A stretch of 64,000 nucleotides of DNA from a virus (IMGVR_UViG_3300042090_002597:1-64000), one strand, 5' to 3'; shown: positions 8,629 to 62,755, counted from the first letter of the stretch. Translations and numbers: made by a program. Notes: a model not told the origin generated them from the sequence alone.

Positions 8629-9543
8629 CTACGTATCCGTGATCGTCTCGGTGTCCTGAACCACTTCCAGGTTCACATTGATCCGCTCGATCAGATTGAA
8701 CCCGGTGAGGATTGTTACATCAAACACACCCTCCAGGTCAAACATGACGTCGGCCCAGTAGAAACCCGGCATCTGGCCAGTGAACTCATCGTGGGTGGTG
8801 CCTGATGTCGCCTGGAAAGAATGCCGGATATTCTGTCCAATCTGAGAGAACAAGGTGGCTTTCAGTGCCCGAAAAGCCATGAGCAGCGTGTCGCGATAGA
8901 AGTCCCGCTCATCCGCATTCTGACTGAACACACTGATCCGCCAGACCCGTCTTGCCCAACCCGGCAGCGTCCACAGATTGTCCGGTTTCGTAACCAGGAC
9001 AACATCCTGACCAATCATCGTATCGTTCTGTTGGAACAAATCCAGATTGACGACAATGAACGGTGTCGCTGCCAGACCGCCCTGCGGCATTTTTGTGCTG
9101 ACCTGAACCGGCGCTACCGCTACACCTGCTGGTATAGGAGCGTTATCGCAAGCCGCCTGGAGAAGGCGAATCAACAGCTGCGACAGCCCATCTGGCGTCG
9201 TAACTATTGACCCTGCGGGTGTAATTGGTCCGATTTGAGTAGTGCCAGTCGTATCAGTGGTCCGCCACACATACTGAAGAGTAGAATCCAAAGGCTGCGA
9301 AGACGTGCTTGGCCCGTCGCCAACGTCTGCCCAAATAGGAAGAGGCGTGCCGCTGTATATTTGAGTGAACGTGCCGAGTCCTGTAACGCCGGATACCGCC
9401 CGGGAGAGCGTCATCAAAGTAACCCCAGACGGCGGCGAAAAATTGCCTTGATCAGCGCCATAGAACTGTAGAAGCACGGCTCCGCCTACCGGTAGCGGAC
9501 TCGCAACAACAGGAGGGCCGGACCCACTCATTTGCTGAACCAA
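8629..9543 (-). CDS. Putative neck/tail-completion protein
   Basis: 304 aa, located between the head-tail adaptor genes and the sheath; the true start may be the ATG a few codons downstream. Confidence 0.55.
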   Translation of the reverse strand: MVQQMSGSGPPVVASPLPVGGAVLLQFYGADQGNFSPPSGVTLMTLSRAVSGVTGLGTFTQIYSGTPLPIWADVGDGPSTSSQPLDSTLQYVWRTTDTTGTTQIGPITPAGSIVTTPDGLSQLLIRLLQAACDNAPIPAGVAVAPVQVSTKMPQGGLAATPFIVVNLDLFQQNDTMIGQDVVLVTKPDNLWTLPGWARRVWRISVFSQNADERDFYRDTLLMAFRALKATLFSQIGQNIRHSFQATSGTTHDEFTGQMPGFYWADVMFDLEGVFDVTILTGFNLIERINVNLEVVQDTETITDT

Positions 9544-9584
9544 AATCCTCTTGACTTACGAAACACAGAGTAGCACGTTAACAG

Positions 9585-9655
9585 CATCCGGCGCTGCCAA
9601 GCGTAGTACTGTACGGTAAAGTATGGTCCGGTCAAGCACCGCAAGCCAAGGTTTT
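9585..9655 (+). ncRNA. NGY-NN pentamer tract A (putative guide RNA)
   Basis: ggc-gc tgc-ca agc-gt agt-ac tgt-ac ggt-aa agt-at ggt-cc ggt-ca agc-ac cgc-aa gcc-aa ggtttt; a TTGACT -35-like box lies at 9551. Confidence 0.8.
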
Positions 9656-9874
9656 TCAGGCAGCCGATTTCAGTTTTACGCCGCCTTCCACAAACTCGAC
9701 GCCCGCTCGCTCCAGCGCACTGCGGATTTTTTCAGCAGTGCTAACCCGGGCGTCCCGCGCTCCACCTTCAAATAGTTTTACGGTGATCTCGGCCACACCG
9801 CTCTGCGCGGCGAGGTCCGACTGACGAATCCCCAGCAGCGCCCGAGCAGCTCTGACTTGTCCTGCGGTTAGCAT
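9656..9874 (-). CDS. XRE/Cro-family HTH transcriptional regulator
   Basis: MLTAGQVRAARALLGIRQSDLAAQSGV...ALERAGVEF is a classic alphaproteobacterial XRE sequence; transcribed divergently from the Cas7-like gene. Confidence 0.9.
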   Translation of the reverse strand: MLTAGQVRAARALLGIRQSDLAAQSGVAEITVKLFEGGARDARVSTAEKIRSALERAGVEFVEGGVKLKSAA

Positions 9875-9929
9875 ATTAGGGACATACCACAGCGGCTCCG
9901 CAAAATACAACTGCGTAGTAAAAACATAC

Positions 9930-9958
9930 TTGACGTATCGTAAATCATTGTCTATAGA
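9930..9958 (+). promoter_or_regulatory. Sigma70-type promoter for tract B and the Cas7-like gene
   Basis: TTGACG-17 nt-TATAGA directly upstream of tract B. Confidence 0.65.
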
Positions 9959-9962
9959 TGTC

Positions 9963-10027
9963 AGTAGCGCGTCGTGACGCGTTGCTAGGCCATGCAGCGT
10001 GACGCTCTGCTTCGCAAACCAAGGAGT
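9963..10027 (+). ncRNA. NGY-NN pentamer tract B (5' leader of the Cas7-like gene)
   Basis: 11 consecutive NGY-NN units (9963-10017), then ACCAAGGAG, which overlaps the RBS. Confidence 0.75.
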
Positions 10028-10032
10028 TAGGT

Positions 10033-10620
10033 ATGAAAATCCATGTGACGATTGAGGGCACTACCCCTCTTCTGATGAACCGTTTCACCGAGCAGAATGA
10101 GGTAGCCCTTTCCAGCGGCACTAGTGCCTCATTCAAAGGCAGTCGAGGCACACCGCGGGAGCAGGCAACACCGAAATGCTACGCAGACGAAAATGGCATG
10201 CTGTATATCCCCGGTCCGAACATCTTCGCCACCATTATCGCAGCGGGCACCTTCCACAAGGCGGGTAAGTCGAAGTTGACCACCATGAAGTCCAGTCTCA
10301 TTCCGGCCGGGCTGTTAGTTGAGGACTTGGTCTGTTCGCTCAACACCGACAAGTGGGAGGTGGACAGTCGCTCGGTGGTGATTCCCAGCACCGGCGGTCG
10401 CGTGATGTGCCACCGGCCGCGAGTGGATCACTGGTCATGTTCGTTCACTCCGGATGTCGACGGCACCATGTTTGACCCGTCCCTGATCCGCGCCGTAATT
10501 GACGACGCCGGGAAGAAGGTGGGTCTGGGCGACTACCGTCCGGCACGCAAAGGTCCGTTTGGTCGTTTCGTAGTCAAGACGTGGGCTGTCGAGGATATCA
10601 AGTTGAAGAAGGTTGCATAA
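10033..10620 (+). CDS. Stand-alone Cas7/RAMP-superfamily RNA-binding protein
   Basis: 195 aa; N-terminal beta strand (I.V.IEG.TPLLM), YIPG..I helix motif and C-terminal glycine-rich loop GLGDYRP..KGPFGRF typical of RAMP/Cas7. No other cas genes and no CRISPR array nearby. Confidence 0.8.
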   Translation: MKIHVTIEGTTPLLMNRFTEQNEVALSSGTSASFKGSRGTPREQATPKCYADENGMLYIPGPNIFATIIAAGTFHKAGKSKLTTMKSSLIPAGLLVEDLVCSLNTDKWEVDSRSVVIPSTGGRVMCHRPRVDHWSCSFTPDVDGTMFDPSLIRAVIDDAGKKVGLGDYRPARKGPFGRFVVKTWAVEDIKLKKVA

Positions 10621-10625
10621 TATGG

Positions 10626-10706
10626 CGTGTTGTTCTTCCTAAAGTTGCTGTGCCACGTCAGGCGTCGCACCGTAGGGTTTTGTTAGGCAGTGCAAAGCAA
10701 GGTTTT
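10626..10706 (+). ncRNA. NGY-NN pentamer tract C
   Basis: 12 uninterrupted NGY-NN units from 10646, ending TGCAA AGCAA GGTTTT. Confidence 0.8.
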
Positions 10707-10723
10707 AGTTTATTACATTTTAG

Positions 10724-10784
10724 CGCATAGCGAAGTGGTGTATTGTCCTGTTTCGCAACGCACGGTGGTGTAGCGCAAGGTTTT
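10724..10784 (+). ncRNA. NGY-NN pentamer tract D
   Basis: 12 of 12 units fit NGY-NN, ending CGCAA GGTTTT; an AT-rich linker separates it from tract C. Confidence 0.8.
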
Positions 10785-10791
10785 AATTTAT

Positions 10792-10873
10792 AGCAGTATA
10801 CGGCCCTGCGCGGTTACGCGCGGTCCAGTGCAGCGCACTACTGCCTGGCGCTGTATAGCTTGGCGAGGTTTTT
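10792..10873 (+). ncRNA. NGY-NN pentamer tract E
   Basis: 14 of 16 units fit NGY-NN, ending GGCGA GGTTTTT. Confidence 0.8.
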
Positions 10874-10882
10874 AATTGCGTA

Positions 10883-11422
10883 TTAAACTAATCCTTGAGC
10901 CATCCCCCTGGCCATCGCAGCTAATGTTCCGGCTGGAGAATAAGCTGGCATGCTCGGGATGATCCAACTGTCCGCCGGAGAGTTCGGTCCGATCGATGCG
11001 AATCCACTGGACGTACCGGCACGCACTTCCGCCCACATCATCGGCCTGGCCGGACCGCCGCCAACACGCTTCAAACCGGTCATGGAGAGATGCTGCGCGC
11101 TGCCGACCGGCCGGTGTATCGGTATGGAGCGGCCGCGCAGCGCGGCAACGGTCTTCATGTCGAACGAACGGTGGCCTTCCTCCAGAAACAGCGCCTCCGG
11201 TGCCACACTTTCGTCCGCCAGGATTGCGACCGTGTTTTCGTCGACCTGCCTGAAACTCAGCGATGAAGCATAGCGGCCGCTTGGATAGAACAGCCGCTTG
11301 CCGTTCAACATGTCCTTGCCGAGCGCGAAATTCATCCATTTCACGAATATCTCTACACCGATCTCGGTGACGAGTTCGGGTGGAAGGTCCGTCTTGATGA
11401 CGAAGACATGCCCCGTGCTCAT
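10883..11422 (-). CDS. Putative neck/virion morphogenesis protein
   Basis: 179 aa; SGRY..S, LEEG...FDMK and WIIP motifs, resembling neck-region proteins of large myoviruses. Confidence 0.55.
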   Translation of the reverse strand: MSTGHVFVIKTDLPPELVTEIGVEIFVKWMNFALGKDMLNGKRLFYPSGRYASSLSFRQVDENTVAILADESVAPEALFLEEGHRSFDMKTVAALRGRSIPIHRPVGSAQHLSMTGLKRVGGGPARPMMWAEVRAGTSSGFASIGPNSPADSWIIPSMPAYSPAGTLAAMARGMAQGLV

Positions 11423-11439
11423 GCTTGAACTCTAGTTCG

Positions 11440-11550
11440 GGTAGTGCTACTTCTCGCATTGTGTTGCTTGGTGCTGCTGCGCCCGGTGTCGCAGGGTACA
11501 GCGTTGTTAGGCGGAGCCGAGCGCCGCACTGTAGTGCAATGCAAGGTTTT
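11440..11550 (+). ncRNA. NGY-NN pentamer tract F
   Basis: 21 of 22 units fit NGY-NN, ending TGCAA TGCAA GGTTTT; lies intergenically between two minus-strand neck genes, with TTGAAC at 11425. Confidence 0.8.
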
Positions 11551-11552
11551 CA

Positions 11553-12428
11553 TTACGGTCCTATTTTAGCACTGCCAACCATTACAGTGTACGGCCGCGC
11601 GGTGCCGCCGACCTGCACCGAGCCCGGCGCCGACTGGGTTACGCCGCGCTGCCTCGTCCAGAAGTCCAGCGACTGCAGCCGCCAGCGCTTCGGCTCATTG
11701 GCCATGCCGCCACCGAAAGCGCGCGTATGCGGCAGGCCGCCCGCGGCGCGGAACACCACATAGATCGGCGATGCCTGAAACTCGACCATGTAGTTGGTGC
11801 CTACCGGATAGCCGCCGATTCTCACCGTCGGACCGTCTGACGAATAGTTCTCGACCGGTACCACTGCGTTGCTGACCGGATCCCATACCGTCACCGCACC
11901 CTGCGGCTCGATCTGCAAATTCTGCTGGTACGGCAGGTTCTCTTTCACACCCACCTGCAGCACTGCGGTGTAGCGGATCAGCGAATCGACCGGCACAAAT
12001 TGATCATTGGTGGATGCGTTCTGCCAAATATTCGTCGGCTGGCCAGGATCGCCGACCGGCAGAGTGGGGTTCCAGTAAGGCACCGTCAACGAGGGTTCGG
12101 CGGTCTGCCACATGCCGTACGATTCGTTCATCCGCACACCCGGCTCGTCGGGGGTGGGCGAGACGTGCATGAAGGTAATTAGCACCTTGGCCGGAATGGA
12201 AGGCGGATCCCAGTAAGTGCCAACACCACCGCACTGGGTGCAGTTGCGCTGCGCCGAGCCCAGTTGCGGTAGTTGTCCGTTGGCGCCGCTGCCGGCGTAC
12301 ACGCACGGGCATGTGTGCGATTTCAGCCAGGAGCAGCGTTGCCCATGGGTCGCGATCAATGCCTCGAATGCCCCCGGCGGAAGGGCTTTCAGAGTCGGCG
12401 GAATGAATGAACCTGCGAACGCGCTCAT
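11553..12428 (-). CDS. Putative head-closure/neck protein with zinc-binding motif
   Basis: 291 aa; F..LI..HG...W.KS..CPC...C..C.G.G pattern. Confidence 0.6.
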   Translation of the reverse strand: MSAFAGSFIPPTLKALPPGAFEALIATHGQRCSWLKSHTCPCVYAGSGANGQLPQLGSAQRNCTQCGGVGTYWDPPSIPAKVLITFMHVSPTPDEPGVRMNESYGMWQTAEPSLTVPYWNPTLPVGDPGQPTNIWQNASTNDQFVPVDSLIRYTAVLQVGVKENLPYQQNLQIEPQGAVTVWDPVSNAVVPVENYSSDGPTVRIGGYPVGTNYMVEFQASPIYVVFRAAGGLPHTRAFGGGMANEPKRWRLQSLDFWTRQRGVTQSAPGSVQVGGTARPYTVMVGSAKIGP

Positions 12429-14058: not shown

Positions 14059-15642
14059 ATGCTCCCCTTCAAGGAGTGTTTCGTGAAAGCAAACCCGATC
14101 AAATCCTGCCGCGGCTGCACCGACGCCGCTGTGCGAGCGAAGATGCCGCACGAGGAGCAGTGTAACGCCTGCCGAAAGAAAGAATTGAACCGAAAATGGC
14201 GGCTGGCCAACCCAGGTGCGATGGCTGCGAACGCCAGGAAATGGCGCGAGGCCGGCAACAAGACCGTCCGCCCCGAAGGTTACGAGGAGCAGCAGCGCCT
14301 CAAAAAACTGGAAAAATACAGAAACGATCCGGAACATCGCGAGAAAGCCAAGGCGGCCGCCAAACAGCGCCGTCTGGAAAAACCGGATATCGTGAAGGCA
14401 GAAACGAAGTCCTGGATGGAGCGTAATCGTCCGGCAGTCCGGCGGTACCAAAGCGATTATCAGCGCGAGCGGCGCGCGTCAGATCCAGAATTCCACCAGC
14501 GGCTGCTCACCGCGCAGAGCATGTGGCGCATCCGGCACTGGGCGAAAGACCCGCAGAGCAACAGCTGGATACGGCACCTGGAAAACCAATCAATCGACCC
14601 TGTGTGGCGCCAGAGACTGCACGTTTGGCAGGACAACCGATGCTACATGTGCAACAAAAAAGACAACAACATGACGATCGAACACATCATTCCGCGCAGC
14701 CGCAGTGGGCCGACTGTGAAACAAAATATCGTCTATACTTGTTCGTCCTGCAACTATTCCCGCAGGGCTTTGATATGGGGTACCGAGTGGCAACCTCGAA
14801 ATGTCGACACCAGCCTGACCGACCTGACGGTCACTTACAAAACGATCTCGCACGCACTTAGAGAGGCCGGACTAGAAGCTGCTGAAAACGGCCGCGGCGG
14901 TTTCCGCATCCACAGCGATAAGCGCGCATCGTCCCGCGATCTGTACATCCTGTCCACCTTTGCCGCCAGCGAGCGAAACGTGTCGTCTCGTGATGGCCGG
15001 TTCGCGTGCATTCTGCGAGACGCTGACCCGAATGCGATCATTCTGTTCGACTACGAATGGTACGCCCGGGCAAAAGCGGTGCTGAACATGCTTCGGTCGA
15101 AAATGGGCATCGCCGAGAAAGGGATCGGCGCCCGGGAACTGTCAGTGGTCGAAGTGTCCGCCGAGGACGCGACCGTCTTCCTGCGCGATCACCATGTTAT
15201 GGGTGCCGTGGACGCCCCGTTCCGAATCGGGCTGGCCAACGGCGAAATGCTCTGCGGTGTTGGGCTGTTCGCGGACCATGGCGATAGCTACGAATGCGTC
15301 CGGCTCGCCTTCCGCGGACATGTGCCTGGCGGCATGACCCGGATCATCCAAGGTCTGCGGCGCCTGCACGGCAACCGGCCGGTGACCTCGTTCATCGACA
15401 CCCGCTATGCCACTGGAGCCGGGCACGGGACAGTCGGCTTCACTTACGAAGGGAGGACCGAGGAAACCTACCTCTGGGTTTTGCCCGATCGGGTGCAGCA
15501 CCAGCGGTACTTGTCGAACGACAACAAGATGTCGCGCAATCTGCTCTATTTCAACCCGGACCTGCCGCGAGAAAAAAACATTCGTGCGAACGGTATTTTC
15601 AAAGTATGGGTTCCGCCGCGAGCCAAAATGCTACTGGCTTGA
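14059..15642 (+). CDS. HNH endonuclease fused to a Hef-like/GNAT-like homing-endonuclease domain
   Basis: CYMC...TIEHIIPRSRSG....NIV..C..CN HNH motif; C-terminal ARE..V.EV...A..FL..HH..G and S..D.RY motifs. Inserted antisense to the head operon. Confidence 0.75.
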   Translation: MLPFKECFVKANPIKSCRGCTDAAVRAKMPHEEQCNACRKKELNRKWRLANPGAMAANARKWREAGNKTVRPEGYEEQQRLKKLEKYRNDPEHREKAKAAAKQRRLEKPDIVKAETKSWMERNRPAVRRYQSDYQRERRASDPEFHQRLLTAQSMWRIRHWAKDPQSNSWIRHLENQSIDPVWRQRLHVWQDNRCYMCNKKDNNMTIEHIIPRSRSGPTVKQNIVYTCSSCNYSRRALIWGTEWQPRNVDTSLTDLTVTYKTISHALREAGLEAAENGRGGFRIHSDKRASSRDLYILSTFAASERNVSSRDGRFACILRDADPNAIILFDYEWYARAKAVLNMLRSKMGIAEKGIGARELSVVEVSAEDATVFLRDHHVMGAVDAPFRIGLANGEMLCGVGLFADHGDSYECVRLAFRGHVPGGMTRIIQGLRRLHGNRPVTSFIDTRYATGAGHGTVGFTYEGRTEETYLWVLPDRVQHQRYLSNDNKMSRNLLYFNPDLPREKNIRANGIFKVWVPPRAKMLLA

Positions 15643-37559: not shown

Positions 37560-38781
37560 GCAGCCATCAGCATGGTGGTGCGCGGCGGGTAGACGTTCCG
37601 CCTGCCGCCGAAGATGATGACGTAGCCGACGAAAAACAGAAAGAAGAGGTGCATCAGTTACGTTCCACTTTGAACACTGCCACGTAAAATTCGCGGCGAA
37701 AATTCTTTTCGAACTCCACTTTTACAAGCGATATTGAGTGGCCCCAGTTTTCGCCGTCGTCTTCGACAAACTTGTTGATAGCCATCTCGTACGCTTGCGG
37801 AAGCTGAGCGATGTGGTCAAGCTCGATGCGTATCGTCGCAGGTAGGCTAGTGTGCATCACCATGCCTGACGCAGCCGTGTTTTCCGTCATCTGACGATCC
37901 TGAACGCTGGCGTTGTCTGATTGGGGTCGCCGGGTAGCACGATGCAACTCAGCGCCGCAAAAGCGGTGCAGAAAGCGGCGACGTAGGCTGCGGTGCGCAG
38001 CAGCGGGCGGCGGTAGTGCCAGGCCGCTGTGAGCGCGGCTCCAAGCAGAAAAAAGCGGATGAAGGTGCGTTCCATGACCGCTGCCATAGCCTGTTGTGTT
38101 ATTACGGTCAAGTGAATAATTTTCAGCGGCTATGGTATTTTCTGGCGGGCGAGTGACTGAGGTGGCTGTTACGTTACATATTACGTATTACATTTGAAAT
38201 AGATTCTATTTTTTCTCTAAACAACAGCATCATAGGCTGGTTTTGCTACAAAAATACTATTACATTAAAAAGGCTCGTCATATTTTTTCTTGGAGCAACT
38301 CATTGATGTTGTTACAAAAACCATTACATTAAAAAGTGCTACTGTATTTTTCCGAGAAGCCAGGCCGGGTAGCCGAACCAAAACTGAATACTTTCCCCAC
38401 CTCCCCCGGCCTGGCTAGGACTGGAATCCTTAGCATGCTTCGCCTGCCTAGGCTGGCGCAGCTGCGGCCGCGGTTTCTCAGGCCGCGCCGCTGTGTGCTG
38501 TGCTGCAGTCTCTTGATTGTGTCAGTGTGTAACCTCGCTTTCATACTCGATCCACGCCGCGAATCCGCTCACATATTGCAGCAACTCTGCCGCAGTACGC
38601 ATTGCTGCGTTATTGTGGATGAGAGCGCCGCGCGTAAGAGAATGAGCCTTGCCGTTAGCGTCTATCCAGTGAAGGCGGGTTGCGGTCATGTGATTAACTC
38701 CGGTTGACATTGACTATATAGCGTCGCTATACACAGTTTGTCTAATGCTTAAAGCGCATATCAGAATTGCAATTCTTGCAT

Positions 38782-60088: not shown

Positions 60089-62755
60089 CTAGTTCACGAT
60101 GCGGAGGTCCGGGCGGACACGCTCAATACGCCATTTCGTAACATGCGTATCGCCTCCGCCGCTCTTGGTGCCGCCATCCTTGACGAACCGAAGGCCGCCG
60201 GTGATCCGCCCGGAGTGTCGTCCAAGCCAGTTGCTGAGCCGCTGGGGGTCGACAATTCCGCGGTAGCCGGCGGCCCGGAGCATGATGTCGAGCAATTCAC
60301 CGCGCTCGACCACGCTCTCTGCTGGCCCCCCGACAACCTGGAGGCTATGTGCCGGCACGCCGAAACCTGCCTGCATAGCGGTGTCGGCGGCTTCCTTGGC
60401 GGTGTACGCCTTGTCGGAACCAAGACGACTGTTCCACGCCACCAGCATGTCCCGCAGGTTTTTCAGGTCTGGATCGTCCGCCCGGGCCCGGTCCATGGCC
60501 AGCACCGGATCCGGCCAGCCGAGCCAGATCAGGGCACCCCGGACATGGCGGGACCACGCCTCGTACGAGCCGAGCGGCCGCAAATTCTTGGACCCCGGAA
60601 AACCGGCTGCCGCGTGCGCCCGGAGAATGTCCAGTACTGCTGCCACATACGACCCCCGGTCGTTCTCTACCATTTTGAGCGGATCGAAGCGGAATGTACG
60701 GGTTTCCGGCTGTTCCACCCCGGCGTCCAGCCGGATCGGCAGGTTCCTTCGTACCATGTCTCCAGATACCTGCAGCCCGTTGCCGTTTGCGGTGAAAGTG
60801 GCGCAGCTCTCTACCTCGATGATGCTGCTGGCTCCGAGCAACCGGATCCGGATGCGCTCGCGCTCGACTGCCTGGTTCAGCACATCCGATCGCAGGACGC
60901 CGTTCACATTGTCCAGAGAGATCATCGGATAGCCAGCGGCGATCAGGCCATGCAACCGCTTGTCCAGTTCCTGGGGATTGTCGCTCGCGCTTGCCACAGG
61001 ACACCTTTGCCCGGTTGCTATAAGTGAAGCCAGATCAATGAGATGGCTTTTGCCTGTCCCGGCGTCGGTGGCGGATACGGAGAACATGGGTGCCAGCGAA
61101 ACGGCGCTGCGACAGACTGCGGTGAAGATCAGCGCGAGAGCGACGGAGCGGTCAACCTCGTCGACAAAGGGAAATCCCTCCAGCAGAGCGTTCACATGTC
61201 CTAGCCCCGTCGCGGCGTCCGACATAACGGCGTGCCGTGTGCCCCAGTTTTCGGGCATGCGGAGGTACGGATCGATTACCCGATGCACGCGCAAATCGGG
61301 GTCGTAGCCGACTCCGGTCGACAACCTCCCGTCTGGAAGCAAACCGGGTACGGCGACAACTCCGGCGATCTCGGGAAACGGGCGCGCGGTCGCTCTTTCG
61401 AGCAGGACCATCACCACATCGTTCGGAGGGTCGATAGTGACCAGTTTCTGCGCGCGGCCGTCGTAGCGCACCCAGGTGGCGACCTTGGACAGCACGTCAC
61501 GCAGCCCGGCCAGGGTGAAGGTGTGCAGGCCCACAGTGGTGGTGGTCAGGCCTTGGCTGCGCACCGTACGGGAGACCGGTGTGACCAACTGGCCGCCCCG
61601 TACATAGATCGCTTGCTGGGTGGCCAGGAGCGCCTGTTCCGCCTCGTCCGCGGCGCCGGAGAGGTTGCCGGGGTGCACCTGGATGGTGGGCCGCTGGACG
61701 GCTTGGACGATCTGCTGGGCTGGATTTGTTCTGTCCGGTATGACGATCGGCGTAAAACCAGATTCTCGAATTTTCCACTGTTGCCACGCTGTTCCGCCTT
61801 TCCAGGTCCGGCCGGCTGCGGCTTCGTGGCGCTGGGCTTCCCGGTGCAGCGAGGCGTAGCCGGAGTTCCGGGTTGGGGGCGAGACCCGCATCCGGTCCCA
61901 TTCTTCTTCGCAGGTGACCGATTCGCCGTACGCCGGGCTGCGGCGAGACCATTCGTCCCAGGCGGCGAAACCCTCGTCGGAGCCATCGGTGGCGGCAAAA
62001 ATTGCCATGCCGATGGTTTCTTTCCAGTAGGTCCAGTTACTGTCCGGGTTCGGTATCAGGGAGAGGGCTTCCCGGATGACGTCCACCGGCGCCTGTACGG
62101 GCGGTGTGTCCGGGTTCAGCGGCGCGGCCGGTTTCAGGCTGGCGGAAGCACGGGCGGCCAAGCGGTTGGCGGCTTCTCCGATCGGGGATAACTGGTCCGG
62201 TGTGCCCGAGAGGCGGTCGAAGGTAATGGTGACGTAGTTTGAGCCGAGGTAGATTTCGCCTTTGGCTGGCGCGCCGTTGGCGGTGAAGGAGTACGGGGTC
62301 TTTGTTGATTTTCCGGCCCATCCATCTGCCAGTCCGATGATCCGAATGCCGGTGAGGGACGGCGATATCTCGGTGTACGAGTTGCAGTCCGCGATCACCT
62401 CTTGCGCCCACGGTGCTATCGCTCCGGTGTCTTTGTCCCGGCAGTCGTCCAGATCCAGGAAGAGAAATCCGTCGTCTGGCCGAGGTGCAAATCCGGCACC
62501 GCGTAGAGGGTTCTGTGTTTGCGCCGAGGCAAAAAGTGCAGCGGCCGCTGTTGCATAGTCGCAGAGATCGTTGTCGTCATCTGTGTGCGCCGCGCGCCCG
62601 TCGGCGGTGAGCGGCGGCTTGTCCCAGGACGATTTCTTGTTGGGGTCCCGGAGGTTTCCCTTGCGGTCGTATTTCTGCACGTAGCGCCAGACCACCCAGC
62701 GCTTCATTTCGGCCAGAGGCAGAAGGGCTTGCGGAAATTGGCGGGGCTCGGTCAC
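60089..62755 (-). CDS. Prim-pol primase with PriCT-2 and helicase-like domains
   Basis: RWVVW, DLDDC, YTEISPS..G, W..IGMA...WDEWS, Walker A GTGKS and LDNV motifs. Confidence 0.85.
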   Translation of the reverse strand: MTEPRQFPQALLPLAEMKRWVVWRYVQKYDRKGNLRDPNKKSSWDKPPLTADGRAAHTDDDNDLCDYATAAAALFASAQTQNPLRGAGFAPRPDDGFLFLDLDDCRDKDTGAIAPWAQEVIADCNSYTEISPSLTGIRIIGLADGWAGKSTKTPYSFTANGAPAKGEIYLGSNYVTITFDRLSGTPDQLSPIGEAANRLAARASASLKPAAPLNPDTPPVQAPVDVIREALSLIPNPDSNWTYWKETIGMAIFAATDGSDEGFAAWDEWSRRSPAYGESVTCEEEWDRMRVSPPTRNSGYASLHREAQRHEAAAGRTWKGGTAWQQWKIRESGFTPIVIPDRTNPAQQIVQAVQRPTIQVHPGNLSGAADEAEQALLATQQAIYVRGGQLVTPVSRTVRSQGLTTTTVGLHTFTLAGLRDVLSKVATWVRYDGRAQKLVTIDPPNDVVMVLLERATARPFPEIAGVVAVPGLLPDGRLSTGVGYDPDLRVHRVIDPYLRMPENWGTRHAVMSDAATGLGHVNALLEGFPFVDEVDRSVALALIFTAVCRSAVSLAPMFSVSATDAGTGKSHLIDLASLIATGQRCPVASASDNPQELDKRLHGLIAAGYPMISLDNVNGVLRSDVLNQAVERERIRIRLLGASSIIEVESCATFTANGNGLQVSGDMVRRNLPIRLDAGVEQPETRTFRFDPLKMVENDRGSYVAAVLDILRAHAAAGFPGSKNLRPLGSYEAWSRHVRGALIWLGWPDPVLAMDRARADDPDLKNLRDMLVAWNSRLGSDKAYTAKEAADTAMQAGFGVPAHSLQVVGGPAESVVERGELLDIMLRAAGYRGIVDPQRLSNWLGRHSGRITGGLRFVKDGGTKSGGGDTHVTKWRIERVRPDLRIVN

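Follow-up and report, generated by a model that had tools for sequence, protein, structure and literature searches.

The window, by which we mean the whole stretch of 64,000 nt that was analysed, belongs to a viral genome of 105.7 kb (IMGVR_UViG_3300042090_002597). A search of this genome for a tyrosine integrase (PF00589) revealed none, and the phage may be lytic. On the plus strand at 10033-10620 the window carries a gene, vipr, for a 195-aa RAMP protein with a single RRM and a G-rich loop (GLGDYRPARKGPFGRF), which belongs to phrog_4652 and has no Pfam family. Comparison of the profile of this protein family with structures in the PDB detected entry 36pp, 'SUSP1 Vipr protein' (E = 7.3e-11). 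The single 195-aa sequence matched the same entry (E = 1e-5), with the GxGDxRP...FGRF loop aligned. A Foldseek search with an AlphaFold model of the protein (pLDDT 78) revealed similarity to Csm3 and type VII Cas7 (E ~5e-7, probability 1.00). A search for family members gave 1258 matches; the best 120 of these 1258 showed approximately 70-80% identity and are all unnamed or hypothetical proteins. Divergently oriented to vipr lies an XRE-type HTH gene (9656-9910, minus strand), a candidate vap accessory gene which falls among the transcriptional regulators of PHROG and reaches 21.3 bits with Pfam HTH_3, just below the 23-bit cut-off. The ORFs neighbouring vipr showed no cas-type Pfam or PHROG match, and an Rfam search of 9400-11800 (E <= 1) returned no family.

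Six tracts of pentamer units, here called A to F, are found within 9580-11560, all on the plus strand. The dinucleotide G-Y recurs with a period of five in 12/13 units of tract A, 11/11 of B, 12/12 of C, 12/12 of D, 15/18 of E and 21/22 of F, and no run of comparable quality was detected elsewhere in the 105.7-kb genome. Two weaker plus-strand runs, at 37963-38039 (11/16) and 61791-61857 (10/14), carry no GCAAG-GTTTT handle and are probably due to chance in GC-rich sequence. Tract A (about 9586-9655) is a putative vrRNA gene of ten guide units beyond the HTH gene. Tract B (about 9964-10027) consists of 11 canonical units in the vipr leader. Tracts C (about 10647-10706) and D (about 10725-10784) are putative vrRNA genes of 12 units each with the handle GCAAG-GTTTT. 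They are followed by tract E (about 10793-10873), and tract F (about 11441-11550) is a putative solo vrRNA gene of 22 units. All tracts but B finish with GC(A/G)AG-GTTTT; B closes with CCAAG-GAG at the ribosome-binding site.

The same arrangement recurs in related loci. Pentamer tracts on the strand of the vipr homologue and beside it were found in all ten homologous loci from IMG/VR (L001-L010), and a homologue of the HTH gene is present beside vipr in seven of them. Related handles (GCAAG-G...) also occur in these ten loci; the handle of our phage is too short for the SUSP1 pseudoknot. One of the ten (L005:3806-5350) has a 29-unit tract upstream and at least seven tracts of 15-21 units each downstream. 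Its handle is conserved yet different (GCAAG-GCAAG-GATAC-TTT), and handle sequences therefore co-vary with the Vipr clade. Metatranscriptome contigs with 100% identity cover 9618-9867 (the 3' part of tract A and the XRE gene) and 9373-9533 (the start of gene 8629-9543) and give a weak hint at expression, from an RNA library that may contain DNA. Neither vipr nor tracts C-F are represented among these assembled RNA contigs, an absence that carries no weight. A scan for sigma-70 promoters detected none on the plus strand that could serve the tracts. A single terminator-like site (10849-10865, followed by a T-run) coincides in part with the handle of tract E and lies below shuffle expectation.

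The VIPR system, consisting of Vipr, vap and vrRNAs, has been described in three bioRxiv preprints from 2026 (10.64898/2026.04.26.720920, 10.64898/2026.04.26.720927 and 10.64898/2026.10.15.759431). Its vrRNAs are made of 9-16 YNNGG repeats, in which NN reads double-stranded DNA and one base of the target is skipped; the skipped base usually coincides with the wobble position of a codon, targets occur on both strands, and the system represses transcription of competing phages or satellites (10.64898/2026.04.26.720920). Each repeat is bound by one Vipr protomer and the skip base is not read (10.64898/2026.04.26.720927). Judged by its Vipr homologue, its vrRNA tracts and its skip-rule targets, the locus in our window is a VIPR system, and the Cas7-like RNA-guided system proposed in an earlier note on this DNA, made from the sequence alone, is this published system. 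Among the variant repeats named in the methods of 10.64898/2026.04.26.720920 is YNNNG, and we read the tracts described here as this variant. A TRAP-like RNA-binding attenuator had been considered and was dropped in view of the VIPR papers and the PDB match.

Tract E is a putative vrRNA gene of 16 pentamer units. In the register N-G-Y-N-N, its NN pairs read AG AC CC GC TA GC CC GC GC AC CT GC in the first twelve units and AT TT GA TT thereafter. Ten nucleotides downstream of the tract lies the stop codon of a minus-strand virion-module gene (10883-11422). It encodes a 179-aa protein without Pfam or PHROG family but with 61 relatives and a conserved C-terminal motif, WIIPxMPAY(S/A)PA..LA. Codons 157-168 of this gene (SMPAYSPAGTLA; 10919-10954, minus strand) form the near-self target of the guide, 46 nt from the guide gene. 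On the minus strand, 10954-10919 reads AGC ATG CCA GCT TAT TCT CCA GCC GGA ACA TTA GCT, in frame with the ORF. The earlier note had decoded tract E to this gene end, and its readings of the NN pairs and of the target strand were confirmed, as were its counts of 8/12 identical pairs and 20/24 identical bases in codon register. One of the mismatches is synonymous, as the note had stated, with CTN in the guide and TTA in the resident gene both encoding Leu.

The units of tract E do not contribute equally to this match. Unit 2 is without the G-Y scaffold, and at its position all 38 aligned target sites have ATG (Met), which its AC does not fit. The AG of unit 1 fits the Ser codon AGC of the resident gene and not the Ala of its closest sibling. 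Units 1-2 are probably not an effective guide, and the core guide probably comprises units 3-12 (10802-10851, plus strand; CC GC TA GC CC GC GC AC CT GC), followed by two unmatched units and the 3' handle GCGAG-GTTTT. Alignment of this core with the resident site (10948-10919) showed 17/20 identical bases, with mismatches in TCT, GGA and TTA.

Two further tracts match genes at the flanks of the cassette. The near-self target of guide A lies at 9082-9111 on the minus strand and corresponds to codons 145-154 (PVQVSTKMPQ) of a 304-aa gene (8629-9543); the resident gene matches the guide at 18/20 positions, with both mismatches in the 5' half of the guide. The near-self target of guide F (11569-11600, plus strand) lies antisense to the 3'-terminal codons (ARPYTV...) of gene 11553-12428. 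Units 7-17 match the resident gene at 17/22 positions, and the six 3'-proximal units match it perfectly. In the targets of A, E and F, the last of them antisense, the skipped base falls on the codon wobble position in all three cases.

The significance of these matches was assessed with local ungapped match scores under four masks, for which guides with shuffled unit order served as reference. None of 1000 shuffles attained the observed local score within 1 kb on either side of tract E. The local test gave 0/1000 for tract A and 6/1000 for tract F. The sole mask that scored was the one in which bases 1 and 2 are read and base 3 is skipped (1,1,0); the three control masks were unremarkable. Reading the variable three bases of each unit as whole codons was rejected, with base 3 matching at chance (4/12) and stop triplets in tracts B, C and F. 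The adjoining site is also the best match in the entire window for both A and E, in the case of E the top among 128,000 positions. Window-wide, the score of guide A is about six standard deviations above the shuffles, and that of guide E was attained by 3/40 shuffles, because this guide is GC- and Ala-rich and compositionally simple. Guide E is thus weak on its own at this scale, and its significance derives from the adjacency of the site and from A and F behaving alike.

Searches with the remaining guides were less informative. For tract B no target was found. Two IMG/VR matches of guide C were rejected; they are out of wobble register and their number is about that estimated for chance. Guide D decodes to I-(D/E)-G-I-P-(L/F)-(N/K)-T-G-(S/R), and an exact target search of IMG/VR revealed none. 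Its sole exact 20/20 match in 596 Gb of prokaryote genomes is L051:4782-4810, in frame and with the skip on the wobble position. The corresponding ORF (..PLYVIDGIPLNTGSYSQ.., from a Chitinophagaceae MAG) resembles, as we presume, a TonB-dependent receptor. That guide D may target a host receptor gene is only a lead, about one such match being expected by chance. When the guides of L001-L010 were compared with their own surroundings (+/-4 kb), all scores were within the range of shuffles; aiming at the flanks is therefore not general in this clade.

The closest sibling of the locus, L018, comes from a different metagenome and is a contig of 2076 nt. Its protein identity is 89%, and its outermost segments show 100% identity with the window at each of the three codon positions. 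Three blocks of the window (8660-9414, 10893-11423 and 11584-12227) align to it, and the stop of each of its genes overlaps the start of the next (ATGA, TGATG), from which it follows that two stretches of the window are insertions. Insertion 1 (~9544-10882) comprises A, the XRE gene, B, vipr, C, D and E, and insertion 2 (~11424-11583), a separate stretch of ~160 nt between the 291-aa and the 179-aa genes, contains tract F; both are without counterpart in the sibling. The more distant L025, L012 and L011 also have no insertion between the 304-aa and the 179-aa genes. The probable source sample contains contigs that skip 9375-10940 and 11423-11587 (depth 4.8, versus 7.4 for the main contig, or about two-thirds of it), so that cassette-free siblings coexist with this phage. 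At the F site, 29 other letters stand in place of 163 nt in this sample.

A 527-aa HNH endonuclease gene (14059-15642, plus strand; Pfam HNH/HNH_5, PHROG homing endonuclease) is located 2.5 kb from tract F and runs opposite to the surrounding minus-strand virion cluster. Probably it represents a free-standing mobile gene of its own.

The earlier note had predicted that homologues without the Cas7-like gene would encode a PAYAPAATLA-like sequence with a CTN codon for Leu. A single query with the 179-aa protein gave no related loci, but an alignment-based search gave 38 loci, and no vipr homologue was found in these 38 loci encoding relatives of the 179-aa protein. The aligned target sites comprised 37 homologues and the resident (n=38). 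The predicted sequence is present in two of the homologues, L018 and L025, which encode PAYAPAATLA with CTG and CTC, respectively, as Leu codon and match units 3-12 of guide E at 20/20 positions. L023 matches at 19/20 and L021, L037 and L048 at 18/20 each, compared with 17/20 for the resident, which encodes PAYSPAGTLA with TTA. Homologues do therefore match the guide better than the resident allele does, although this holds for 6/37 sites. The Leu codon is CTN in 30/38 sites, and the TTA of the resident represents a minority state. Over all 12 units of E the contrast is only 21 versus 20; it emerges clearly when the comparison is confined to the ten core units. An exact IMG/VR search for the ten-unit target of E revealed none, and perfect targets were found in only two metagenome contigs. 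The targets of the other two guides behaved in the same manner: the sibling L018 matches guide A at 20/20 and guide F at 20/22 positions. At every position at which sibling and self differ in the E and A targets, the guide agrees with the sibling. These comparisons support the view that guide E is aimed at a non-self allele and that the resident is mismatched at read positions.

The flanks of both insertions differ from the sibling in a graded manner. Identity to L018 at wobble positions falls from 1.00 far away to 0.07-0.4 beside the insertions and returns to 100% farther from them, and GC3 drops beside the insertions in the resident but not in L018. In the 179-aa gene, the AT-rich tail described in the earlier note was evident from a GC3 of 14/29 in the last 29 codons versus 111/150 in the first 150 (23/29 and 112/150 in L018). 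Within the E target itself GC3 is 3/12 (binomial P = 5e-4 versus 111/150 upstream). Next to F, the last part of gene 11553-12428 likewise shows this shift to A/T and reduced identity, as do the initial ~140 codons of gene 8629-9543 beside A. The wobble positions of the E target changed most (7/10) and became A/T-rich; its codon positions 1-2 show no significant excess of changes (3/20 versus 30/338 elsewhere, P = 0.41). The peptide encoded by the tail of the 179-aa gene is nearly identical to that of L018, and all four of its conserved Leu/Arg/Ser codons have switched codon block, versus 7/33 elsewhere in the gene (P = 0.005).

Codon-block switches were also counted over all three flanking genes (8629-9543, 10883-11422 and 11553-12428), where 29/117 conserved Leu/Arg/Ser codons differ in block between the phage and L018. 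Ser codons have switched between TCN and AGY, which takes at least two base changes, at five conserved positions relative to this 80-89% identical sibling. Pressure exerted by guides that read the first two bases of codons might account for such switches.

Considering these observations together, tract E is probably a vrRNA gene of a VIPR cassette that acts against close relatives and is linked to resistant alleles of its targets. By analogy with the systems of SUSP1 and Pseudomonas fulva, each Vipr protomer would hold one pentamer, with the G-Y scaffold buried. The NN pairs would be offered to double-stranded DNA, where two bases would pair and the third, the codon wobble base, would be skipped. 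Binding of the Vipr-vrRNA complex would then block transcription of the bound DNA. The core of guide E spells the PAYAPAATLA-coding 3' end of the adjoining virion gene as it occurs in two relatives, and guides A and F treat the genes on the other flanks alike. The cassette would thereby disadvantage siblings that lack it, and the linked mismatched alleles would protect it, comparable to a poison with its antidote. As the most economical explanation we favour that the resident alleles arrived with the cassette, diverged flanks having been carried along by recombination or gene conversion, rather than that they escaped point by point. The resident copies may not be fully immune, since the E and A sites retain 85-90% and the F site 77% of the NN positions, compared with the threshold of at least 80% for natural targets. 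The mismatches in the 5' half of guide A may matter least, given the published 3'-to-5' progression of the R-loop. If the phage is lytic, the resident's own proteins could stand in, in trans, for the silenced virion genes of a co-infecting sibling, so that the benefit of such silencing is uncertain.

The origin of the resident alleles can be explained differently. The earlier note had proposed that the resident allele was altered in place at codon positions 1-2 to escape its own guide. According to this explanation the guide originally fitted the resident gene; self-silencing was then selected against, and changes at read positions, including CTN to TTA, became fixed. We consider this possible, though on balance unlikely. 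Its point that the guide fits another allele and mismatches the resident one holds, and the minority states of both the resident TTA (Leu) and GGA (Gly) speak for it, as do the fully switched codon blocks of a tail whose protein remained almost that of L018, and the fit of unit 1 to the resident Ser codon. The lack of enrichment of position 1-2 changes in the target speaks against an alteration in place. The changes are instead most frequent at wobble positions, and since VIPR does not read the skipped base (10.64898/2026.04.26.720927), a shift of the wobble bases, such as that towards A/T in the tail, cannot evade this guide. On the left flank, divergence changes gradually along more than 1 kb, and the smooth rise of divergence towards every insertion edge fits an import of flanks at least as well as an escape. 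Moreover, another contig (P0122), which encodes a 94%-identical protein, has the resident S and G too, so that this allele class is older than the present genome.

The near-matches could also be functional in themselves, with partial Vipr binding tuning or timing transcription of the phage's own virion genes. The level of matching at the resident A and E sites, above the threshold for natural targets, and the perfect fit of the six 3'-proximal F units would agree with this, but selection should then have kept perfect matches. The differing positions in E and A all agree with the sibling instead, and the published surveys of the P. fulva clade and of types III and V are without self matches of at least 80%; we regard such self-regulation as improbable. 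Still less credible, to a degree that we hardly reckon with it, is a chance resemblance between a GC-rich, Ala/Pro-rich guide and an Ala/Pro-rich motif, or that the tracts are inert relics of flanking DNA. The compositional simplicity of guide E and the 3/40 window-wide shuffles that attain its score would allow for this. Three tracts, however, have their best or near-best match less than 0.5 kb away (0/1000, 0/1000 and 6/1000 shuffles) and with the published mask only, all three matches are in wobble register, and the sibling matches guide E perfectly.

A related reading takes the cassette for a selfish element guided by RNA and akin to those of homing or marker exclusion, whose guides mark the insertion-free flanking alleles of siblings; we put it forward tentatively and think it rather doubtful. 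In a mixed infection, the marked DNA would be disadvantaged by silencing, by a block of replication or by cleavage through a recruited nuclease. Recombination would then spread the cassette together with its resistant flanks and leave behind the divergence gradient and the recoded gene ends. Free-standing homing endonuclease genes of T4-like phages cause marker exclusion and co-conversion of flanks. Like them, the cassette described here is a mobile insertion among tightly packed genes with specificity for the nearby insertion-free allele, its resident flanks are resistant, and divergence falls with distance. Unlike in homing endonuclease genes, no nuclease family match was found in Vipr or the HTH protein, the specificity would be encoded in RNA, and published type II VIPR represses and does not cut.

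The VIPR class is already published, and the recognition mechanism is not new here. Discrimination by mismatch is likewise in print, in the form of a lower self-match (10.64898/2026.10.15.759431). In the VIPR texts searched, we did not find the targeting of an element's own flanking structural genes, the linkage to resistant alleles or the divergence gradient. The locus would provide a case of natural deployment, with three guides directed at its flanking genes in the form carried by cassette-free phages. The near-self sites of A and E, with 85-90% matching positions, bear on the number of mismatches that confers immunity. The natural pairs of sensitive and resistant targets, which are two to five read positions apart, could serve as substrates for studying the mismatch tolerance of VIPR.

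Among known RNA-guided systems, Vipr resembles the Cas7 proteins of class 1 CRISPR (Csm3 and type VII Cas7) in its fold, its G-rich loop and the use of one protomer per guide unit. It differs from them by the absence of a second RRM, by a period of 5 instead of 6 nt and by gapped pairing of two bases in three. The solo vrRNAs of the SUSP1 family and of F5 satellites are comparable in deployment (10.64898/2026.10.15.759431). They also target close relatives, the self-match is lower than the match to the relatives, and tract F is likewise solo and off the array. In that preprint, vrRNAs directed against other vrRNAs match self less than other phages, which is read there as avoidance of autoimmunity. 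The targets named in it are vipr genes, vrRNA loci, satellites and host REP decoys and not structural genes flanking the insertion of the guide, and a search of its text revealed no passage on resistant-allele linkage, flank recoding or a divergence gradient.

The closest counterparts are the type II VIPR systems of Escherichia phage SUSP1 and of a Pseudomonas fulva prophage. The present system shares with them a small stand-alone RAMP protein, homologous to the SUSP1 Vipr, and pentamer guide genes on the vipr strand, one upstream and three downstream. The skip of 1 nt on the codon wobble position, targets on either strand, the location on a phage, the adjoining small HTH gene and targets in related mobile elements are common to them as well. 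In contrast to SUSP1, the scaffold is N-G-Y and not GGY, and the short GCAAG-GTTTT handle, with ~10 nt between D and E, leaves no room for a pseudoknot tail. Two guides lie outside the core array, namely A, on the far side of the HTH gene, and F, ~550 nt away in an insertion of its own. Self matches of at least 80% of the NN positions are absent from the clade and types checked so far, i.e. the P. fulva clade and types III and V (10.64898/2026.04.26.720920), whereas the resident near-matches of A and E reach 85-90%. Unlike in the SUSP1 and P. fulva systems, the putative targets are the phage's own flanking virion genes in the form in which they occur in its cassette-free siblings.
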